DNA of 42,694 bases from positions 1 to 42,694 of IMG/VR virus record IMGVR_UViG_2690316224_000012; one strand, 5' to 3'. Source of the stretch: a virus (taxonomy: Duplodnaviria; Heunggongvirae; Uroviricota; Caudoviricetes). Positions 9,458 through 41,611 of this stretch are shown here, piece by piece (position 1 is the first letter of the stretch; every line of letters begins with the position of its first letter). Made by a program: the position numbers and the translations under genes. The notes beneath the pieces are model-generated. The model was not told the DNA's origin. It saw only the letters and a list, made by a program, of their open reading frames with translations, and ran no database searches.

Positions 9458-9643
9458 GGCTCACCTCAATCGTAATAAGCTGGAATTGATTTTCCGCGTT
9501 GCTTCTGGCGGCCTGAGCAAGTCACACCCATTCCACTGCGTGGTTTGCGGTAGTAAAGATTGTGCCTGTCTTTTAACCACATCAGGCTCGGTGGTTCTCG
9601 TGTACCCCTACAGCGAGGAAAATAGTAAAATCCTCTCACCCCC

Positions 9644-10006
9644 TTATTTTGTCAGGGGGATATCTCCTTCAGTTCTGACCATTCGACTTAATACTTTCCT
9701 TAAGTCGATGTAAAGTTGAAGGTCTCCATTTGCTGCGGCATCAGCCATTTTTTGCCTGACAAGCAGTAATGTTTCATACGGCTCAATAAGAATATCGTCA
9801 TGAGTAATTAGGTGAAGCGTTGCCGCATCAACTATTCCTAGAGCTGCGCCAAGTATCAAAAATTCCCTGCTATTTTTGTCGCATGAGGAGATAAGCGTAT
9901 TTAGCGCATACCTAATATTCTTTATAGCTGTTGTTAATGCTGCAATTTCTTCTATGGCGTCTTCTTCAATGAGCTTTTTAAGCTCATATTTTTCTTCCTG
10001 ACCCAT
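9644..10006 (-). CDS. Hypothetical protein downstream of N (120 aa)
   Basis: Track ORF overlaps the N-like gene; internal ATG at 10006 (MGQEEKYEL...) has a GAGGT SD and abuts the N stop. Confidence 0.5.
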   Translation of the reverse strand: MGQEEKYELKKLIEEDAIEEIAALTTAIKNIRYALNTLISSCDKNSREFLILGAALGIVDAATLHLITHDDILIEPYETLLLVRQKMADAAANGDLQLYIDLRKVLSRMVRTEGDIPLTK

Positions 10007-10008
10007 AA

Positions 10009-10281
10009 TTACCTCGCCGTCAATTGTTTTGATTTCCGGTAGCCTGCCGCGTAAACGGCTACGTTTGGCAGGCAAATACTTCCACTGCATTCATCTGCCT
10101 TCTTGCAGCGAAGGCTTCCGAGTGAAGCTGCTTTGTCTGCTCTGACGCAACCAGAGAGCTTTAGCGCAATTTTTCGCGCCAGTCGCTGCTCTTGCATTGC
10201 CTGTTCACGTTGAGCCTGTCTGCGTGCTCTGCGGCGATTTCTGGCGTTATCGTCAGCCAGATATGTAATGACTACTGTCAT
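10009..10281 (-). CDS. N-like transcription antitermination protein (P22 gp24-like)
   Basis: Arg-rich N-terminal motif (NARNRRRARRQAQRE); C-terminus VAVYAAGYRKSKQLTAR resembles P22 gp24; first gene after pL/nutL; GGAGGT SD. Confidence 0.65.
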   Translation of the reverse strand: MTVVITYLADDNARNRRRARRQAQREQAMQEQRLARKIALKLSGCVRADKAASLGSLRCKKADECSGSICLPNVAVYAAGYRKSKQLTAR

Positions 10282-10307
10282 GTTGACCTCCGATGATTGA
10301 CTTTGGC

Positions 10308-10366
10308 GGTGACGCGCCGGGTGCTTATCTTCCGGTTGCCGTCGTGCAGCTGCACTTCACGTCACC
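10308..10366 (-). other. Structured element in the N-gene leader
   Basis: Inverted repeat GGTGACG (10308..10314) / CGTCACC (10360..10366) enclosing the 12-bp perfect palindrome GTGCAGCTGCAC (10344..10355). Confidence 0.3.
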
Positions 10367-10639
10367 CCAAAGCCAACTACTCTTTGACTCACACTCTCGC
10401 AGTGAGCGCGCTCATGCCCTTGAGTCTCTGTCGCTTATTAGCCGCTGATAACCGGTGCGCGTCTGGCATTCGCGCTGCCTTTCCGGAGCATGTTCCCTTA
10501 TTTACCCTCACATCGGTCTGCTAAACCTGCTCGCCATTACGCGACTCGGGGCAGCATCATTACTGCTGCATTGCCTTTCGGCTGCGGTCTAACCGCGTTA
10601 GTGCACCATTACGGCACCTCCTGTTTGGTTAAACTCAGT

Positions 10640-10680
10640 TCCCGCATTTCGGCGGGACAATCCCATCAATGTTAAAGAGC
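10640..10680 (-). promoter_or_regulatory. nutL (boxA-like GCTCTTTAA plus boxB hairpin)
   Basis: Minus-sense TCCCGCCGAAATGCGGGA (10640..10657) is identical to the hairpin after cro; boxA-like GGCTCTTTAA 14 nt upstream (10672..10680). Confidence 0.6.
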
Positions 10681-10728
10681 CTGCCAATCTGTTCCGTTTG
10701 GCTACCAGCGTCCTGCTGATGGCTAAAG

Positions 10729-10813
10729 AATACTGTAGGTATTTTATTGTGTAAATACCCAAGGTATTTATTTTTGGTGAAATAATGATAAGCAAATGAA
10801 TACAAAGGATATT
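10729..10813. promoter_or_regulatory. OL operators and leftward promoter pL
   Basis: Three sites AATAC-N5-GTATT at 10729..10743, 10754..10768 and 10799..10813 (third AATACAAAGGATATT); same half-sites as at OR; minus-strand -35 TTTACA / -10 TATTCT overlap two of them. Confidence 0.55.
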
Positions 10814-10899
10814 TATTTTTTCGGTGTCTGCTTGTTCAGTGCTTTTTATGCGGGATATGTGAAGTGGATCCCGATAGCTATTGCTGCCGGGATTATGGG

Positions 10900-11289
10900 T
10901 TAGTCAGCGAAGGTTAAGACGAGAATTACCTTAATGATGTCTGCTACAACAGACACGGCCATAGATAAACCAAAGACGATCCAAGCCATAGAGATGTCTT
11001 CACTACCATCGTATAGAGTTCCGTAATCACTGGTGTAAGGCGTAAATGTCGCGCCTTGATACAACAAGTATAAGCTTGATCCATAGAGGATAAATGCAGA
11101 TATCCCTTGTATTGCTATGATCACTAGAATCATGAAACGAGCTGATCTATGCGCCCAAGCCTGGCTTATTTTTTCTGATAGAGATTTCGCAATAAAAGCA
11201 TGCGCTAAGCCGTAAATTGTCGAGATTGCCAACATCCCAAAAAAGCTTGCTATAGCGGTTCCAACCATAATCGCCCCTTGCGTGATCAA
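10900..11289 (-). CDS. Small integral membrane protein in the lysogenic (cI) operon, rexAB-position
   Basis: 129 aa, about three predicted TM segments; start overlaps the cI stop by 4 bp, so it is co-transcribed with the repressor; lies between cI and OL exactly where lambda carries rexA/rexB. Confidence 0.6.
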   Translation of the reverse strand: MITQGAIMVGTAIASFFGMLAISTIYGLAHAFIAKSLSEKISQAWAHRSARFMILVIIAIQGISAFILYGSSLYLLYQGATFTPYTSDYGTLYDGSEDISMAWIVFGLSMAVSVVADIIKVILVLTFAD

Positions 11290-12002
11290 ACCAGCCTTAG
11301 TTTTGTCTCAATTGCAACGCCTATAATCTTGCAGTTTCCATTGATTGGCACGAGAGGCCATGCAGGATTAAGTCCCTTGAGGTATTTATTTCCGCCGTCG
11401 ATTATCAGCTTCTTGAATGTTGCTTCGTTAGAGTCAGAAAGTTTTGCTATGACCAAGCTGCCGTTGATCGCCTCCCTTCCGGTATCGAAAAGAACGAATG
11501 TTCCCTCTGGAATGCTTAACCCAACCGGTGCCGTCATTGAATCACCTTCCACTTTAAGCCAGAACGCATTACCTTGAATATGCGCGTCAGACTCAAGCCA
11601 AACATCTATGTCTTTAATGGTGTATGGTTCGCATGCTTCACACCACGAGCCAGCCTGGATACTGCTTAACACCGGATACCTCTTTCCTGCTCTGTATTCC
11701 CCTGCATACCTTACGTTGGCATCGCTCTTAAGGCTTTCTGCCTGTTCTGCAACCTTGGCAGCAATTGACTGGCTAAAATCAGCAATTGAGACTTGCAACA
11801 GCCGTGCAAAACCAGATGCAACCTCAACGTTTAGCGCGTTTCTGCCATTAAGATAATGCCCTACCGCTCCTTGGGTGATACCCAGTTCATCAGCGATTGA
11901 GTATTGGGTTATTCCCAATTCTTTCTTTTTTGACTCATACAAAGCCTTAAGCCGCTTAGCGTCTTCGAGCTGTTCTGTCGTCAGTGATTTTTTATTTTCC
12001 AT
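11286..12002 (-). CDS. cI: CI-type prophage repressor (HTH plus S24 LexA-like autopeptidase domain)
   Basis: 238 aa; N-terminal HTH (ITQYSIADELGITQGAVGHYLNG); Ala-Gly site (SIQAGSW); Ser/Lys dyad motifs GDSM and FKKL; divergent from cro across the operators. Confidence 0.9.
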   Translation of the reverse strand: MENKKSLTTEQLEDAKRLKALYESKKKELGITQYSIADELGITQGAVGHYLNGRNALNVEVASGFARLLQVSIADFSQSIAAKVAEQAESLKSDANVRYAGEYRAGKRYPVLSSIQAGSWCEACEPYTIKDIDVWLESDAHIQGNAFWLKVEGDSMTAPVGLSIPEGTFVLFDTGREAINGSLVIAKLSDSNEATFKKLIIDGGNKYLKGLNPAWPLVPINGNCKIIGVAIETKLRLV

Positions 12003-12037
12003 AGCTTAATTCTAATAGCTAAGGTACTTAAACTAAA

Positions 12038-12079
12038 AATACCCTGAGTATTGATTGCTTTGAATACCTGTAGTATTCT
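12038..12079. promoter_or_regulatory. OR operators and rightward promoter pR
   Basis: AATACCCTGAGTATT (12038..12052) and AATACCTGTAGTATT (12063..12077), 25 bp apart; -35 TTGATT (12051..12056), 17-bp spacer, -10 TATTCT (12074..12079). Confidence 0.6.
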
Positions 12080-12108
12080 TTGTTCATGGTTAATAACGGA
12101 GAGTGCAT

Positions 12109-12303
12109 ATGATTCGAATGACACTTGCCGATTACGCCAAAATCCATGGACAGGCTAAAGCAGCCAGTGACTTTGGTGTAATCCAGTGCGCTATCAGCAA
12201 GGCCATTCTGGCAGGTCGTAACATTATGGTTACGGTAAAGCCTGATGGCAGTGTGATTGGAGAGGAAGTTCGTCCTTTCCCAAGCAACAAGAAAAACAAA
12301 TAG
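12109..12303 (+). CDS. cro: Cro repressor
   Basis: Track ORF begins with GTG at 12103; ATG at 12109 has GGAGAG SD; protein resembles lambda Cro (...[19 protein letters not shown] vs ...DGSVYAEEVKPFPSNKK). Confidence 0.85.
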
Positions 12304-12309
12304 TAACAC

Positions 12310-12353
12310 CGCTCTTTAACAGTCATGGTCCTCATTCCCGCCGAAATGCGGGA
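12310..12353 (+). promoter_or_regulatory. nutR (boxA CGCTCTTTA plus boxB hairpin)
   Basis: boxA CGCTCTTTA at 12310..12318, then 17 nt downstream the hairpin TCCCGCCGAAATGCGGGA (12336..12353), immediately after the cro stop. Confidence 0.6.
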
Positions 12354-12360
12354 ATACAAC

Positions 12361-12393
12361 GCGCATAAGTTGATGCGCATAACTTCTTATTAG
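12361..12393 (+). terminator. tR1-like hairpin between nutR and cII
   Basis: GCGCAT-AAGTTG-ATGCGC perfect 6-bp stem followed by a U-containing stretch (ATAACTTCTTATT). Confidence 0.3.
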
Positions 12394-12411
12394 TTAAGGA
12401 AATACTTACAT

Positions 12412-12690
12412 ATGCAACTTACAAGTACTCGCAAGAAAGCGAATGCAATTACAAGCAACATCCTGAATCGAATTGCTGTACGTGGTCAGCGAAAGGTTGC
12501 CGACGCGTTAGGGATTAATGAATCGCAAATTTCGCGATGGAAAGACAGCTTCATCCCCAAAATGGGAATGCTTCTTGCTGTTCTTGAATGGGGTGTTGAA
12601 GACGAGGAGTTGGCGGAACTGGCTAAGAAAGTAGCCAGAATGCTGACAAAAGAAAAAGCCCCGAAGAACGGCGAATTCTTCGAGGCCTGA
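12412..12690 (+). CDS. cII: CII transcriptional activator
   Basis: Resembles lambda CII (...SQISRWK...IPKMGMLLAVLEWGVEDEELAELAKKVA... vs ...SQISRWKRDWIPKFSMLLAVLEWGVVDDDMARLARQVA). Confidence 0.8.
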   Translation: MQLTSTRKKANAITSNILNRIAVRGQRKVADALGINESQISRWKDSFIPKMGMLLAVLEWGVEDEELAELAKKVARMLTKEKAPKNGEFFEA

Positions 12691-12724
12691 TGTAGAAAGA
12701 CTGGATCAATCCACAGGAGTAATT

Positions 12725-12886
12725 ATGACAAAACGTCGTAAGAAATACCAGGAAAAAGAAGAGATTCGACACCCTGATTCACCTGAGGGATTAGTGGTAG
12801 CCGCAGCAAATAACAGGGCGTTCGCAGAGCGCCTTGTTGGTGTTTACAGACTAGCCAAAGCAGGAGTGAAACATGGGCGTCGTTAA
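12725..12886 (+). CDS. Hypothetical small basic protein (53 aa)
   Basis: Sub-threshold ORF with GGAG SD; overlaps the start of the replication gene, so it could instead be a leader or translational-coupling element. Confidence 0.3.
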   Translation: MTKRRKKYQEKEEIRHPDSPEGLVVAAANNRAFAERLVGVYRLAKAGVKHGRR

Positions 12887-33398: not shown

Positions 33399-34814
33399 AT
33401 GGCTACGTGGCAACAGGGTATTAATTCTGGTGGTTTTCTGGCTGGCATCGGTACGCAAAATGAGAATGCGCCAAAGGCAAGCGACATTAACGCAACGCTT
33501 GGTCTGATCCGCGAAAACAATGAACTGGCTCGCTCAGGTGCAAATAACGTTGGTCTGACCGCGTTACGTGGTCTGGCTGGAGTTGCTGATATTTACAATC
33601 AGGAACAGCAACAGAAAGCGATTAGTGCGTTCAATAAGGTTCACGCTGATGCATGGGCTTCTGGTGATCCATCGGGACTATTTAAGTTTGCCAAGGAAAA
33701 TCCAGCGTTTGTTGCGCAGGCACAACAGGCGTTTTCCGGTCTTAATGAGCAGCAACGCAACGATATGGGCGATTTAGCCATGAGGGCTAACGTCGCTCTT
33801 TCTCAGGGACCGGAAGCCTACAGTAAATTCATTACTGACAACAAGGACAGGTTAAATCGCGTTGGTGCTAATGCTGACTGGATGATTCAGACAGGTATCC
33901 AGAATCCAGAGCAGCTATCACACATGCTGACTACTATGTCTCTCGGTGCTCTTGGACCAGAAAAGGCGTTTGCTGTTCAGGATAAGATGGCTGGTCGTGA
34001 AATTGACCGAGGCAGGCTGGCAGAGACAATCCGCAGCAATCAGGCTGGCGAGGCACTTCAGGCGAGAGGGCAAAACCTTTCCTATCAGTCAGCAATGACT
34101 GGGCACAATATCGCAGCACAACGCTTGGCTCTGGATCAGCAAGAGTTCGGGTTTAAGATGCAGCAAGCGCAGGAAAAGGCTCAGCAGTTGATTAGCGAAG
34201 CACCTAAGCTGTCAGTAAATATGGAAAAAGGCATCGAGACGGCTGTAAACAATGCCACAGCATCATCAAACTCAGCCAATTCCATGAGTGCGCTTGCTCA
34301 ACAGTTCAGAGCAGAAAAACCAACGACAGGTTTGTTCGGTAACGCACAGAACATGTTCGCAAAACTTACCGGAAGCGATACGACATTGCGTGATTTGCGC
34401 ATTCGCCAAAATGCCCTTGTTAACAGTCAGGTTCTTAAATTCCTACCTCCCGGCCCAGCAACGGATAAAGACGTTGAGATCGTTCGGCAGGGTGCGCCAA
34501 CTGACATGGATAACCCTGAGACGGTCGCAAGATGGCTTGATGCAATGGCAAACCTTGAGCGACGAAACGCGCAGTTTAATGAGTTTAAAGCTGAGTGGAT
34601 GAGCGCGAATGGCAATCCTGGACAATCGCGTAATGGCGGTCAGATATTGGGGTTGGATGTTAAAAAAGGTGAATCATTGGGGAGTGCCGTTAAGCGGTAT
34701 ATGTCATTGAATACTGACGCAGCGCCAGCACAAGATTCGACACCTTCAGGAGAACCACGGAATCAGGTTGGATCATATACCTCAAAATCAGGCATTCAAT
34801 TTACGGTGGAATGA
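33399..34814 (+). CDS. Ejection protein, P22 gp20-like
   Basis: 471 aa, matching P22 gp20 length and position. Confidence 0.65.
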
Positions 34815-36652
34815 TGAAAGTAACTGCAAACGGTAAGACATTTATCTTTCCTGATGGTACGAGCACCGAAGATATTGGCATCGCCATTGATGAGTATTTT
34901 GCTGGTCAGGCTGTTCAGCAACAAACAGTTAATCAGGCCAATAATGCACCAACACGGGAAGAACCATCATTGATGCAACAAGCTGGCGATTGGCTCACTG
35001 GTGGTCAAAGTGCAGGGCAAATTGCAGAACAGGCTGGTCGTGGTCTGGTAAACATACCATTTGACGTATTGCAGGGTGGCGCAAGTCTGATTAATGCAAT
35101 CAGTCAGGGGATTGGTGGGCCAAAAGTTTTGGATGATGTTTATCGTCCAGTAGACAAACCGACAGACCCATACGCACAAGCCGGTGAAACAATTGGTGGG
35201 TATTTAGTTCCAGGAGTTGGAACGGCAGGAAGCATGGCTATTGGATCGCTGGCAGAGGCCGCAAATCAGAAAGGCGATTTCGCACAAAATGCAGCTAAAA
35301 ATGCCGGAGTTAACCTTGCCGCTCAGGGTGTTCTTTCCGCAGCAGCAAAGGGAATAGGGCGTGGAATAACGGCTATAAAAGGTGATATTGCGCCAGAAGT
35401 GGCGAAGAAAATTGCCACATCAGAATCGATGGGCGTGACACCAATGACATCTGATGTTATCCCGCCGAAAAATGCTTTCACTCGCGGCCTTACTCAGGAT
35501 GCCGAGGGGGCTTTGCTCGGGACGGGCTCAAAGCGAGCAGAGCAATATGCAACGCGGAGTAAGCTGGTAAGCAATTATTTTGACCGTTTTGGTGAGTACA
35601 ACCCTGATGATGTGGTGAAATCTCTGACCACCACGTTAAGGGGGCGGAAGGATGCCGCTGGCGCTGTTATCAATGACGTCACCAATAAAATGGGTAATGC
35701 CGCAGTTGATACCACAAATACCATGAATGCTCTGAATACAGCGATCGCAAGACAGGAACGGCTTGGGACGTCTGCCAATCAAAGCCTGCTTACATCCTTG
35801 CGTAACCTACGTGAAGAATTAGCAAACCCTGCAACTGATTTGGATGTTACGTTTGATCTCTTGCGTCAGCACAGAACAGCATTTAGATCTAATGTTCAGG
35901 GAGATGCTATGGTCTTCCCCAACCAGGCAAAAGCAGCTACCAATATGGTAGAGAATGCAATGTCAAAAGACCTTCGTAACGCAGTTGCTAAAAACCTCGG
36001 TGCATCAGACGCAGCAAAATACCTTAAAGCAAATTCCGATTATGCAAACGTTTATAATAAGGTGCTTAATAAAAACATTGCCAACAAGCTCAACAAGGCA
36101 AGCAGTGAAGCCAGTCCTGAACTTATAAATACCGTTGTATTAAGCAGAAAACCATCTGACGTGAAACGAATCTGGAGCGCACTGGATGATAAGGGGAAAG
36201 ATGCTATGCGTGCAGCTTACGTCAGCAAAATAGCGGAAAAGGCCGGGGACTCTCCAGCCAAGTTCATCACTGAAGTTAATAAGCTGAAATCTCAGTCAGG
36301 CGGTGAAATTTACAACACTATTTTTTCTGGAAAGCACATGAAAGAGCTTGATGCTCTTCATGAAGTTCTACAGCAAACAGCAAGGTCAGACACCGCAAAT
36401 GTAGTAACTCAGACGGGGCAATCGCAAGCCAACAGGATAAGGACGATTGGCGCAACTGCGACCCTTGGCGTATCAATGGGGCTTGAGGCTGGTTTTGGTG
36501 CAATGATGCGCTTGTATGAGTCCAAAGCAGCAAGGAATATGCTTCTTCGTTTGGCAAACACCAAAGCAGGAACACCAGCCTATGAAAGAGCGATAAATAA
36601 CGCTGCGAATGCCATCAGACCGCTGTTTGCTACTGAGGCAACACAGCAGTAA
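34811..36652 (+). CDS. Ejection protein, P22 gp16-like
   Basis: 613 aa (P22 gp16 about 609 aa), last of the three ejection genes. Confidence 0.65.
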
Positions 36653-36676: not shown

Positions 36677-37066
36677 CTAACATTTTCTTTTTACTTTTCC
36701 AACAAAAGCTTTGGTTGAATCCATATTTCCATAACCGGAAATGGTTTTTGACATTAAAACTGTTCCAGTAGGATGTATTACCCATGAGTCGATAACGCGT
36801 TGAGTTTCGCCATTCGCGCCGATTCCTATGATGGAGTTTTTAGACAATGCTTTGTAAGCCATGCCGCCCGCATCTGTCCCAGAATATGTGATGCTGGCAT
36901 CTTCACCGTTTGTCTTAATGATGAATGTTCCACTAAAACCATCTTCTTCCGGATGGAAATTATTTCGTTCTGAATAGCTTATTCCGCGCATATCTCCAAC
37001 GACCCAGCACTCTGCTGTAGCCCCAAAAGATATGAATAAGAACATAGCAGTAAGAAATTGCTTCAC
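36677..37066 (-). CDS. Secreted protein with signal peptide (moron)
   Basis: GTG start with AAGGAGG SD; N-terminal signal peptide (MKQFLTAMFLFISFGATA|E); convergent with the flanking structural genes. Confidence 0.6.
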   Translation of the reverse strand: MKQFLTAMFLFISFGATAECWVVGDMRGISYSERNNFHPEEDGFSGTFIIKTNGEDASITYSGTDAGGMAYKALSKNSIIGIGANGETQRVIDSWVIHPTGTVLMSKTISGYGNMDSTKAFVGKVKRKC

Positions 37067-40292: not shown

Positions 40293-41450
40293 TCACTCCA
40301 CCTTCCCATCAAGCCATTCCGCCCACCACTGCATCATTTCTCTGCGCTTATCTAGATACTGAGCATGGTTGTAAATCCCGCGCACAGATCCGCCGTTGGC
40401 ATGTGCAAGTTGCACTTCAATAGCGTCAGCAGGCCATTCGTGCTCGTTCATAATCGTGCTGAATTCATGCCTGAATCCGTGACCGCTTTCCAGACCCTCA
40501 TAGCCGATTTGTTTAATCACAAGTAGCACCGCGTTCTCGCAGATTGGCTTCTTCTTATCGTTGCGTCCGGCAAAAACAAACTCTGATACTGGTTTGGTGA
40601 TTGAGCTTAGCGTAGTGAGAAGTTCAACCACCTGGTCTGACATAGGAACCACATGAATTTTGCGTCCCTTCATCACACTGGCGTCGATAGTGATAATCCT
40701 GTTTTCAAAATCGACGTTCTTCCATTGCATGGAACGAAGCTCTTTCGTTCTTAGGGCTGTGTAGCGTAAAACTTTGGTCGCAATGAGCGATACGATGCTT
40801 CCTGAAAATGTTGCCAGTGCTTTGTTGAATGCCGGGATCTGGTCTGCAGGAAGAAACGGGAAGTTCTTCTTGCGGTATCCTTTCATGGCGTCTGCAAGGT
40901 CAGGTGCCGGGTTATATTTAGCCCTACCAGTGACAATAGCGTAACGGAAAACCTCGCCGCATCTTCTGCGTGCTTTGTTGGCTCGCTCCATTGCGCCGCG
41001 ATCTTCAAATCTGCGGATTACTTCCAGCAGTTGCATCGGCTCAATATCCTGAATTTCAAGGCCGCCGATGATAGGTAAAATGTCGTCATCAAACATTTTT
41101 GCAAGTTCAGTTGCATAGCCTACTGACCAGACTTGCTTCTTGTGCTCGTACCATTCCTTGTAAATCGCACTAAAGGAATTGTTGTTAGACGAAGCCTTTT
41201 TCGCTTTTACCGGATCGATGCCAACCGAGATGTCTTTCCTCGCAGTCCATGCTTTATCCCTTGCCTCCTGCAAAGTCATTAGCGGATATTTTCCTACGGT
41301 CAGGATTTTCTCCTTACCGTCAATCTTGTAGCGAAGCTGCCATACCTTTTTCCCTGACACAGGGACATAAAGGTACAGGCCATTACCATCGAGTAGGCGG
41401 TATGGTTTTTCTTTCGGCTTTGCTGCTTCAATCTGCTTAACGGTGAGCAT
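40293..41450 (-). CDS. intS: Tyrosine integrase, IntS (KplE1/CPS-53) type
   Basis: Track ORF begins with GTG at 41486; ATG at 41450 gives 385 aa starting MLTVKQIEAAKPKEKPYRL..., as recalled for E. coli IntS; adjacent to argW. Confidence 0.85.
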   Translation of the reverse strand: MLTVKQIEAAKPKEKPYRLLDGNGLYLYVPVSGKKVWQLRYKIDGKEKILTVGKYPLMTLQEARDKAWTARKDISVGIDPVKAKKASSNNNSFSAIYKEWYEHKKQVWSVGYATELAKMFDDDILPIIGGLEIQDIEPMQLLEVIRRFEDRGAMERANKARRRCGEVFRYAIVTGRAKYNPAPDLADAMKGYRKKNFPFLPADQIPAFNKALATFSGSIVSLIATKVLRYTALRTKELRSMQWKNVDFENRIITIDASVMKGRKIHVVPMSDQVVELLTTLSSITKPVSEFVFAGRNDKKKPICENAVLLVIKQIGYEGLESGHGFRHEFSTIMNEHEWPADAIEVQLAHANGGSVRGIYNHAQYLDKRREMMQWWAEWLDGKVE

Positions 41451-41611
41451 GGGTAAAAATCCGGTGGGTAAAATTATTTTATCCACTTTTTACCCGTCAT
41501 GGAGTGCGGCTGTCAACGATCTGACGCGAACCATTACGAACTGTGAATCTACGGAAGGCTTGATATTCAGGGGATTTTGCGGACTGGTACGGATGGGAGC
41601 GAACTGATAAA

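Follow-up and report, generated by a model that had tools for sequence, protein, structure and literature searches.

The interval between the repressor gene cI and the left operator OL of lambdoid phages is an optional cargo space, which is left empty in P22, mEp213, SEN22 and the Serratia phage OS31 (with a cI 71% identical overall to that of the locus described here) and is occupied by rexA-rexB in lambda and by hex in 434 and Sf101. One of these products, lambda RexB, is a small polytopic protein of the inner membrane, which it spans with four transmembrane (TM) helices. In the lysogen, rexB is co-transcribed with cI (PMC3564112, PMC8585504) and, more generally, RexAB, the tyrosine kinase Stk from 933W and Hex from 434 are all co-transcribed with the repressor and exclude other phages (PMC3564112). 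Encoded on the pRM transcript, Hex is required for the exclusion of P22 by imm434 lysogens and has also a reported non-exclusion role in the stability of the lysogen (PMC3564112). The abortive-infection gene bstA from BTP1 is similarly located downstream of cI, and the cI-N region represents a hotspot of mosaic diversity (PMC8585504). The characterised occupants of this slot covered by these papers all act on other phages (PMC3564112, PMC8585504). A preliminary description of the locus presented here had referred to the slot as one that carries diverse exclusion genes expressed in the lysogen, which is in agreement with what is published for rexAB, stk and hex (PMC3564112) and for BstA (PMC8585504). 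As an argument for exclusion, the position of a gene in this slot should be taken as a prior and no more.

With respect to the entry of phage DNA, the injection blockers that are understood form a small set, consisting of SieA, Imm, HK97 gp15 and Sim. For P22-like phages, the best-studied of these is P22 SieA, which resides in the inner membrane, is small and is predicted to have three TM domains; it blocks DNA delivery (PMC10883804). It comprises 162-164 amino acids and exhibits a cytoplasmic FxRYPxEAxxFNK motif (PMC10883804).

The stretch of DNA analysed here, 42,694 nucleotides in length and referred to as the window, is a P22-like (Lederbergvirus, HK620-like) prophage which contains ORFs of portal, coat, ejection-protein and tailspike size, together with an integrase at positions 40293-41486. 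On the minus strand, the six-frame list of ORFs gives an ORF of 129 amino acids at 10900..11289, opening with TTG. According to sequence comparison, this ORF is hkaS from coliphage HK620, a member of PHROG 6534, with which it shares 97% amino acid identity over an equal length of 122 amino acids. The match to PHROG 6534 (E 3.6e-79) aligns profile positions 1-122 of 122 with residues 8-129 of the long ORF. Since its deposition in 2001 the gene has been present in the databases (AF335538, AAK28867.1) and is thus already catalogued, its product being annotated as 'unknown' and PHROG 6534 as of unknown function. The earlier statement that the protein falls in no recognised family consequently stands in one part only, in that the family is devoid of an assigned function; a named family does exist. 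In the openly searchable literature, no paper mentions hkaS together with HK620, and the papers found there on HK620 exclusion, mEpX2 and prophage hotspots hold no functional data for the gene.

Several lines of evidence bear on the start codon of hkaS. The PHROG profile spans the 122-residue form, the HK620 record annotates the gene at 369 nt, and all homologues consist of 122 amino acids starting with M-V/I-G. In the Salmonella, Hafnia-type and metagenome lineages, the stop codon of cI is TAA or TGA and is followed by a spacer of 17-20 nt, always with AAGG or AAGGA ahead of the ATG, and the in-frame TTG (11289-11287 in the window) is not conserved. Owing to the span of the profile, the length annotated in HK620, the conserved spacer with its Shine-Dalgarno sequence and the lack of conservation of the TTG, the true start is the ATG at 11268, and the TTG is probably unused. 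The preliminary description had reported a 129-residue ORF overlapping the cI stop codon by 4 bp. The ORF is indeed present, but its length has to be corrected to 122 residues from ATG 11268, and the 4-bp overlap, which depends on the TTG, arises artefactually from the choice of the longest ORF, the two genes being separated instead by a 17-nt gap containing a Shine-Dalgarno sequence. The features of the locus are collected in Table 1.

Table 1. Features of the hkaS locus and of the surrounding operators, with their positions and strand in the window.
Feature	Position	Strand	Description
pL-like promoter	10755..10727	-	-35/-10 found by promoter scan
Left operator/promoter region	10727..10813	-	OL1 10729-10743, OL2 10754-10768, from pattern search
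Hairpin	10868-10893	-	stable fold starting 7 nt after the hkaS stop codon; no U-tract in the window
hkaS CDS	10900..11268	-	122 aa, ~13.2 kDa, predicted three-pass inner-membrane protein; stop codon TAA 10902-10900
cI-hkaS spacer	11269..11285	-	17 nt; Shine-Dalgarno AAGGGG 11274-11279, 5 nt before ATG
cI	11286..12002	-	238 aa; HTH_3 and Peptidase_S24 (Pfam); first gene of the putative cI-hkaS operon
Right operators	12014..12077	.	OR1 12063-12077, OR2 12038-12052, OR3-like 12014-12028 (2 mismatches)

The immunity region to which hkaS belongs (10638-12400) shares 99% DNA identity with that of HK620, mEpX2, HK630, HK140, HF4s, phi296 and phi367, and in two Stx2c-converting phages the match extends to the whole region, left flank included. 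The cI protein of the window is identical to that of mEpX2 and 99.6% identical to that of HK620, in which hkaS occupies the same position after cI and ahead of the same OL/pL, the two loci displaying no substantive difference. Rightward of cI occur a Cro of the PF09048 type and cII, and an N-type antiterminator is encoded leftward at 10009..10281. The flanks located to the left of nutL resemble those of Stx2c-converting phages and not those of HK620. An unusually long leader of ~360 nt (10282-10640) extends from nutL to the start of N, and is similarly common to Stx2c-converting phages and not to HK620.

By pattern search, the operator consensus AATACN5GTATT is found as exact matches at 10729 and 10754 in OL and at 12038 and 12063 in OR, which bracket the cI and hkaS genes. 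The HK620 annotation, transferred onto the window by an offset of +2887, agrees with the location of hkaS between cI and the left operators. These operator matches, the pL-like promoter and the HK620 annotation all concur with the location between cI and OL/pL that had been proposed earlier, and hkaS immediately follows cI, ahead of OL/pL, as rexAB do in lambda. Both pRM, reading leftward through cI and hkaS, and pR, reading rightward, would reside within 12014..12077, the position of pRM being deduced from this arrangement. A third operator-like site at 10799-10813 (AATACAAAGGATATT), 45 bp from OL2, deviates from the consensus by one mismatch and is closer to it than the OL3 of the HK620 record (10775-10791 here).

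In every locus with available upstream sequence, hkaS begins 17-20 nt after cI, and N is found 350-500 bp further. The scan detected no promoter-like or terminator-like site between cI and hkaS on the strand of the gene. Taking into account the 17-nt gap and the lack of any such site between the two genes, hkaS would be co-transcribed with cI from pRM and pRE. The hairpin located after hkaS represents a candidate for the 3' end or the terminator of this transcript. Hairpins of unrelated sequence occur at the same position in the Salmonella, metagenome and Hafnia-type loci, and the hairpin of the Buttiauxella locus is a canonical terminator, with a hairpin and a U-run. Owing to this conservation in position, the hairpin lends support to a two-gene cI-hkaS unit which would end before OL. 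The tIMM terminator annotated in HK620 (10788-10818 here) folds into an unconvincing hairpin, compared to which 10868-10893 is the better candidate. An Rfam scan of positions 9500-12800 yielded one sub-threshold chance match only.

The hkaS gene is under purifying selection. Compared to the Hafnia-type homologue, its dN/dS ratio is 0.125 versus 0.029 for cI, at an equal dS of 0.756, and the homologues that share 52-83% identity with it consist of exactly 122 amino acids, devoid of indels. The gene is intact in all 80 of the 80 copies retrieved from IMG/VR, which correspond to 19 alleles differing from each other by conservative changes only. It occurs in 146 of 5426 complete E. coli genomes (~2.7%), always on the chromosome and always as a 'hypothetical protein', and the exact protein is found on at least 1000 contigs, where no source names it. 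Besides E. coli, the hosts of the family comprise Salmonella, Hafnia and Buttiauxella, together with gut metagenomes. The idea of a leftover ORF devoid of function, or of an annotation artefact, might be entertained for a very narrow family with no known domain, but it can be considered as effectively refuted by the purifying selection, the constant length, the intact copies and the conserved Shine-Dalgarno sequence and start codon, and hardly deserves any credence.

Although constrained, HkaS evolves faster than its neighbour: the protein shares 52-83% identity with homologues for which cI is 86-97% identical, and its amino acids change about four times faster than those of the adjacent cI at equal dS, the periplasmic loop being the most variable part. 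Such a pace fits a protein which meets changing phage partners and fits weaker constraint equally well; it is still purifying selection, and could reflect a weaker constraint exerted on a membrane protein. At codons 92-93 (~10990-10995), where the periplasmic loop gives way to TM3, two common alleles occur among the 80 loci, I-S-M in 13 (the type of the window) and I-T-V in 32, the others being rare single substitutions. The G+C content amounts to 41.7% in hkaS, 45.7% in cI and 47.5% in the whole window.

The hydropathy profile of the 122-residue polypeptide shows three hydrophobic stretches, each as long as a TM helix (residues 1-27, 45-72 and 93-121), which are connected by two loops of opposite charge. 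The loop 28-44 is basic, with K28, K33, H40, R41 and R44, and the loop 73-92 is acidic and rich in aromatic residues, with D81, D87, E90 and D91. On account of these loop charges and of the positive-inside rule, HkaS is predicted to be a three-pass inner-membrane protein with an N-out/C-in topology. An AlphaFold2 model built from an eight-sequence alignment consists of three long helices (mean pLDDT 89.6), with a short amphipathic helix at residues 31-38 and a small β-hairpin in the periplasmic loop. The hydropathy segments and the modelled helices both bear out the approximately three TM helices of the preliminary description. The comparison of six divergent sequences left 38 invariant positions. 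They include a stripe of small residues in TM1 (G3, A5, S8 and G11), residues Q54, W96, S106, D110 and K113, and a YLLY motif where TM2 reaches the periplasm, and the C-terminal tail I115-D122 (ILVLTFAD) is wholly invariant. A helical periodicity of conservation is suggestive in TM1 and TM3 (p ~0.05-0.065) and absent in TM2, and is too weak to be used.

The family of HkaS is, as judged from its sequences, a narrow orphan. A word-indexed search among 5.8 billion proteins resulted in 12 clusters at 90% identity, and an exhaustive profile search among 1.84 billion representatives at 50% identity resulted in a single full-length cluster plus a fragment of 44 amino acids. No family match was obtained in Pfam and NCBIfam, the line for TssN (E 0.044) being far below the cut-off, and none of the families of PADLOC-DB v2 matched at E <= 10. 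HkaS matched no annotated PHROG family, among which holins would be included; as a control, lambda RexB and SieA each match their own annotated PHROG, and no match links HkaS to phrog_14878, the family of RexB. Sequence, profile and fold searches, the comparison with HMMs and structures of the RexB, SieB, Imm and Abi families being the check proposed at the outset, revealed no link of HkaS to any Rex, Sie, Imm or Abi family, the fold searches returning generic helical bundles only and all hhalign probabilities falling below 1%. A homology to the exclusion proteins of other phages was accordingly discarded for lambda RexB (hhalign probability 0.6%), P22 SieA (phrog_7745, 0.3%), the SieB of P22 and lambda (0.1%) and 434 Hex (phrog_2651, 0.06%). 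Within this prophage, no homologue of SieA, SieB or RexAB was detected.

By its position and its type of protein only, a role of HkaS in exclusion or abortive infection would be plausible. The three-TM, N-out/C-in organization predicted for HkaS is also that of class I holins. In this respect, HkaS may be thought of as an abortive-infection effector, a latent pore-forming or depolarizing protein similar to RexB or to holins, which would be triggered by infection and, by collapse of the membrane potential or premature lysis, would kill the infected cell before any progeny is formed. The invariant charged or polar residues Q54, S106, D110 and K113 located inside the TM helices, together with the holin-like topology, are consistent with such an effector, as is a slot shared with lambda rexAB and BstA (PMC8585504). 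However, class I holins exhibit a charged cytoplasmic C-terminal tail and belong to the lysis cassette, whereas HkaS ends with the hydrophobic ILVLTFAD, matches no annotated PHROG and is encoded in the immunity region. The likeness to RexB similarly goes no further than the small size, the several (for HkaS predicted) passes through the inner membrane and the location of the gene in the cI-OL interval, since the hhalign score given above and the fourth TM helix of RexB speak against a relationship. In lambda, the sensor RexA adjoins RexB, but hkaS has no such partner: a tblastn of RexA against the window gave E 4.5 and hence no homologue, and no ORF occurs between cI and hkaS. A lone pore former expressed constitutively would also need some trigger. 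An effector of this type is therefore regarded as quite unlikely.

Other proteins share their placement with HkaS without sharing its nature. In lambdoid prophages, the genes of both BstA and Stk come after cI and are expressed in the lysogen (PMC8585504, PMC3564112), but the two products are large, soluble abortive-infection proteins which are unrelated to HkaS. The hex gene of 434, like hkaS, directly follows a related cI (52-55% identity), but the annotated Hex ORF displays a signal-peptide-like N-terminus, possesses no TM bundle and is unrelated to HkaS. The best functional analogue for the mechanism that we favour is P22 SieA which, like HkaS, is small, has three predicted TM domains and belongs to a P22-like prophage. 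The two proteins differ by the length of the polypeptide chain (122 amino acids for HkaS) and by the motif of SieA, which is lacking in HkaS, and the genes differ by their location, sieA occurring after gene 16 under the control of its own promoter and hkaS after the repressor gene.

Small three-TM proteins are also found among the immunity proteins directed against pore-forming colicins, and HkaS might accordingly be a host-fitness moron that alters the physiology of the envelope, with a role unrelated to phage defence, such as stress or acid tolerance, immunity to bacteriocins or toxins, or the modulation of a transporter. Expression in the lysogen, as expected from the position of the gene, and its occurrence in Salmonella, Hafnia and Buttiauxella, in addition to ~2.7% of the complete E. 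coli genomes, would suit such a function. Against it, neither a colicin-immunity family nor any other family of Pfam or NCBIfam matches HkaS, and the gene was never seen, among the loci examined, away from its position downstream of cI in lambdoid prophages. The characterised occupants described for the slot, in addition, act on other phages (PMC3564112, PMC8585504). We consider a host-fitness role as unlikely.

A closer relationship to the repressor has also to be weighed, as suggested by the Buttiauxella locus (L016). Compared to the window, the cI of this locus is 27% identical in its N-terminal domain and 88.5% identical in its C-terminal domain, and HkaS is 55% identical. The repressor gene (2333-2980 in L016) thus encodes a domain mosaic with a joint located in the linker, in which the S24 domain is kept and which is accompanied by a different cro. 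It follows from this mosaic that hkaS travels with the C-terminal half of cI and not with the immunity specificity. HkaS could, in this respect, be an accessory of lysogeny maintenance which modulates the RecA-dependent cleavage or the stability of its cognate cI and hence tunes spontaneous induction. In 434, Hex, whose gene likewise directly follows a cI (52-55% identical), reportedly shields the repressor and so makes spontaneous induction less frequent (PMC3564112), and the linkage of hkaS to the C-terminal, cleavage domain even when the DNA-binding domain is replaced points in the same direction. However, genes separated by 17 nt are trivially linked, and HkaS would be nearly entirely buried in the membrane, leaving in the cytoplasm, by prediction, no more than the loop of 17 residues and the short tail, which is hydrophobic. 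No similarity to Hex was found, and the Serratia phage OS31 has no hkaS despite a cI 71% identical. A modulator of this kind is very unlikely. An even bolder variant, to which we attach still less probability, is that HkaS would not block phages at all but would be a membrane partner of the cleavage/oligomerisation C-terminal domain of cI, coupling the state of the envelope to induction; its basis is that hkaS is kept with this C-terminal domain in spite of an exchanged DNA-binding domain, cro and operators. Since only 17 nt separate the two genes, the pairing of hkaS with the C-terminal domain of cI is accounted for by simple linkage, and would also be compatible with a Hex-like role on the repressor.

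The explanation that we favour, although tentatively and with less than even confidence, is that HkaS, expressed in the lysogen, acts in the inner membrane as a superinfection-exclusion factor directed against heteroimmune phages. According to this explanation, hkaS would belong to the HK620-type immunity region as an accessory gene ('moron') that can be dispensed with, and its transcription together with cI from pRM, and from pRE, would allow HkaS to be made in the lysogen. Once inserted in the inner membrane, the protein would block the membrane step of infection, probably the entry of the genome, by heteroimmune phages. Its action would resemble functionally that of P22 SieA, T4 Imm or HK97 gp15, to none of which it displays homology. 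We infer the location in the inner membrane, the co-transcription with cI, and the exclusion activity as well as its target. The HK620-type immunity module is found in P22-like, lambda-like and Stx-phage backbones, and the role of HkaS should for this reason be independent of the type of virion of the carrier.

If HkaS does exclude phages, the injection blockers that are understood would be joined by a new family of inner-membrane proteins, encoded by a single gene and orphan in sequence. That it founds a structurally unrelated family of this kind, present in ~3% of the E. coli genomes, is possible, and we would put it at somewhat below an even chance. Such a function would then be attributed to a gene coming from the well-studied HK620 and from Stx-converting prophages, carried by about 1 in 40 complete E. 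coli genomes, and HkaS would provide a tool for finding the inner-membrane step that heteroimmune phages need, which matters for the prediction of host range in phage therapy. Should HkaS act otherwise, it would represent another case, like 434 Hex, of a position after cI which does not reveal the function.

Some other elements of the window deserve a mention. A hydrophobic ORF of 35 amino acids (MNTKDIYFFGVCLFSAFYAGYVKWIPIAIAAGIMG) occurs on the plus strand at 10797-10903, convergent with hkaS, the stop codons of both overlapping, and it resembles a small toxin-type peptide. Since it is frameshifted or absent in ~22 of the 80 loci of the E. coli type, and in most of the divergent ones, it is unlikely to be a gene. 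Another ORF of 129 amino acids, on the minus strand at 36677-37066, belongs to the Hex family and occupies the slot of P22 sieA, just after a homologue of gene 16 (34811-36652). The N-termini of both Hex-family proteins, from lambda imm434 (2109-2510 in L012) and from the window (36677-37066), are signal-peptide-like, reading MIRIAALLSILLTTSANS/ECW and MKQFLTAMFLFISFGATA/ECW, respectively, and both proteins end with a conserved Cys, which suggests from sequence that the Hex-family proteins could be exported. The published role of Hex is that of a cytoplasmic protein which blocks the RecA-stimulated cleavage of the repressor (PMC3564112), and an export based on the signal-peptide-like N-terminus fits this cytoplasmic role poorly. 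The annotator of the 434 Hex ORF in GenBank flags a wrongly inferred start codon. Both 434 Hex and the ORF 36677-37066 match phrog_2651 (E 1.4e-58 and 2.9e-61, respectively) and share 27% identity in BLASTP (E 3e-12). Owing to this shared match, a single cargo family appears to occupy the cI-downstream slot in 434 and Sf101 and the sieA slot in the window.
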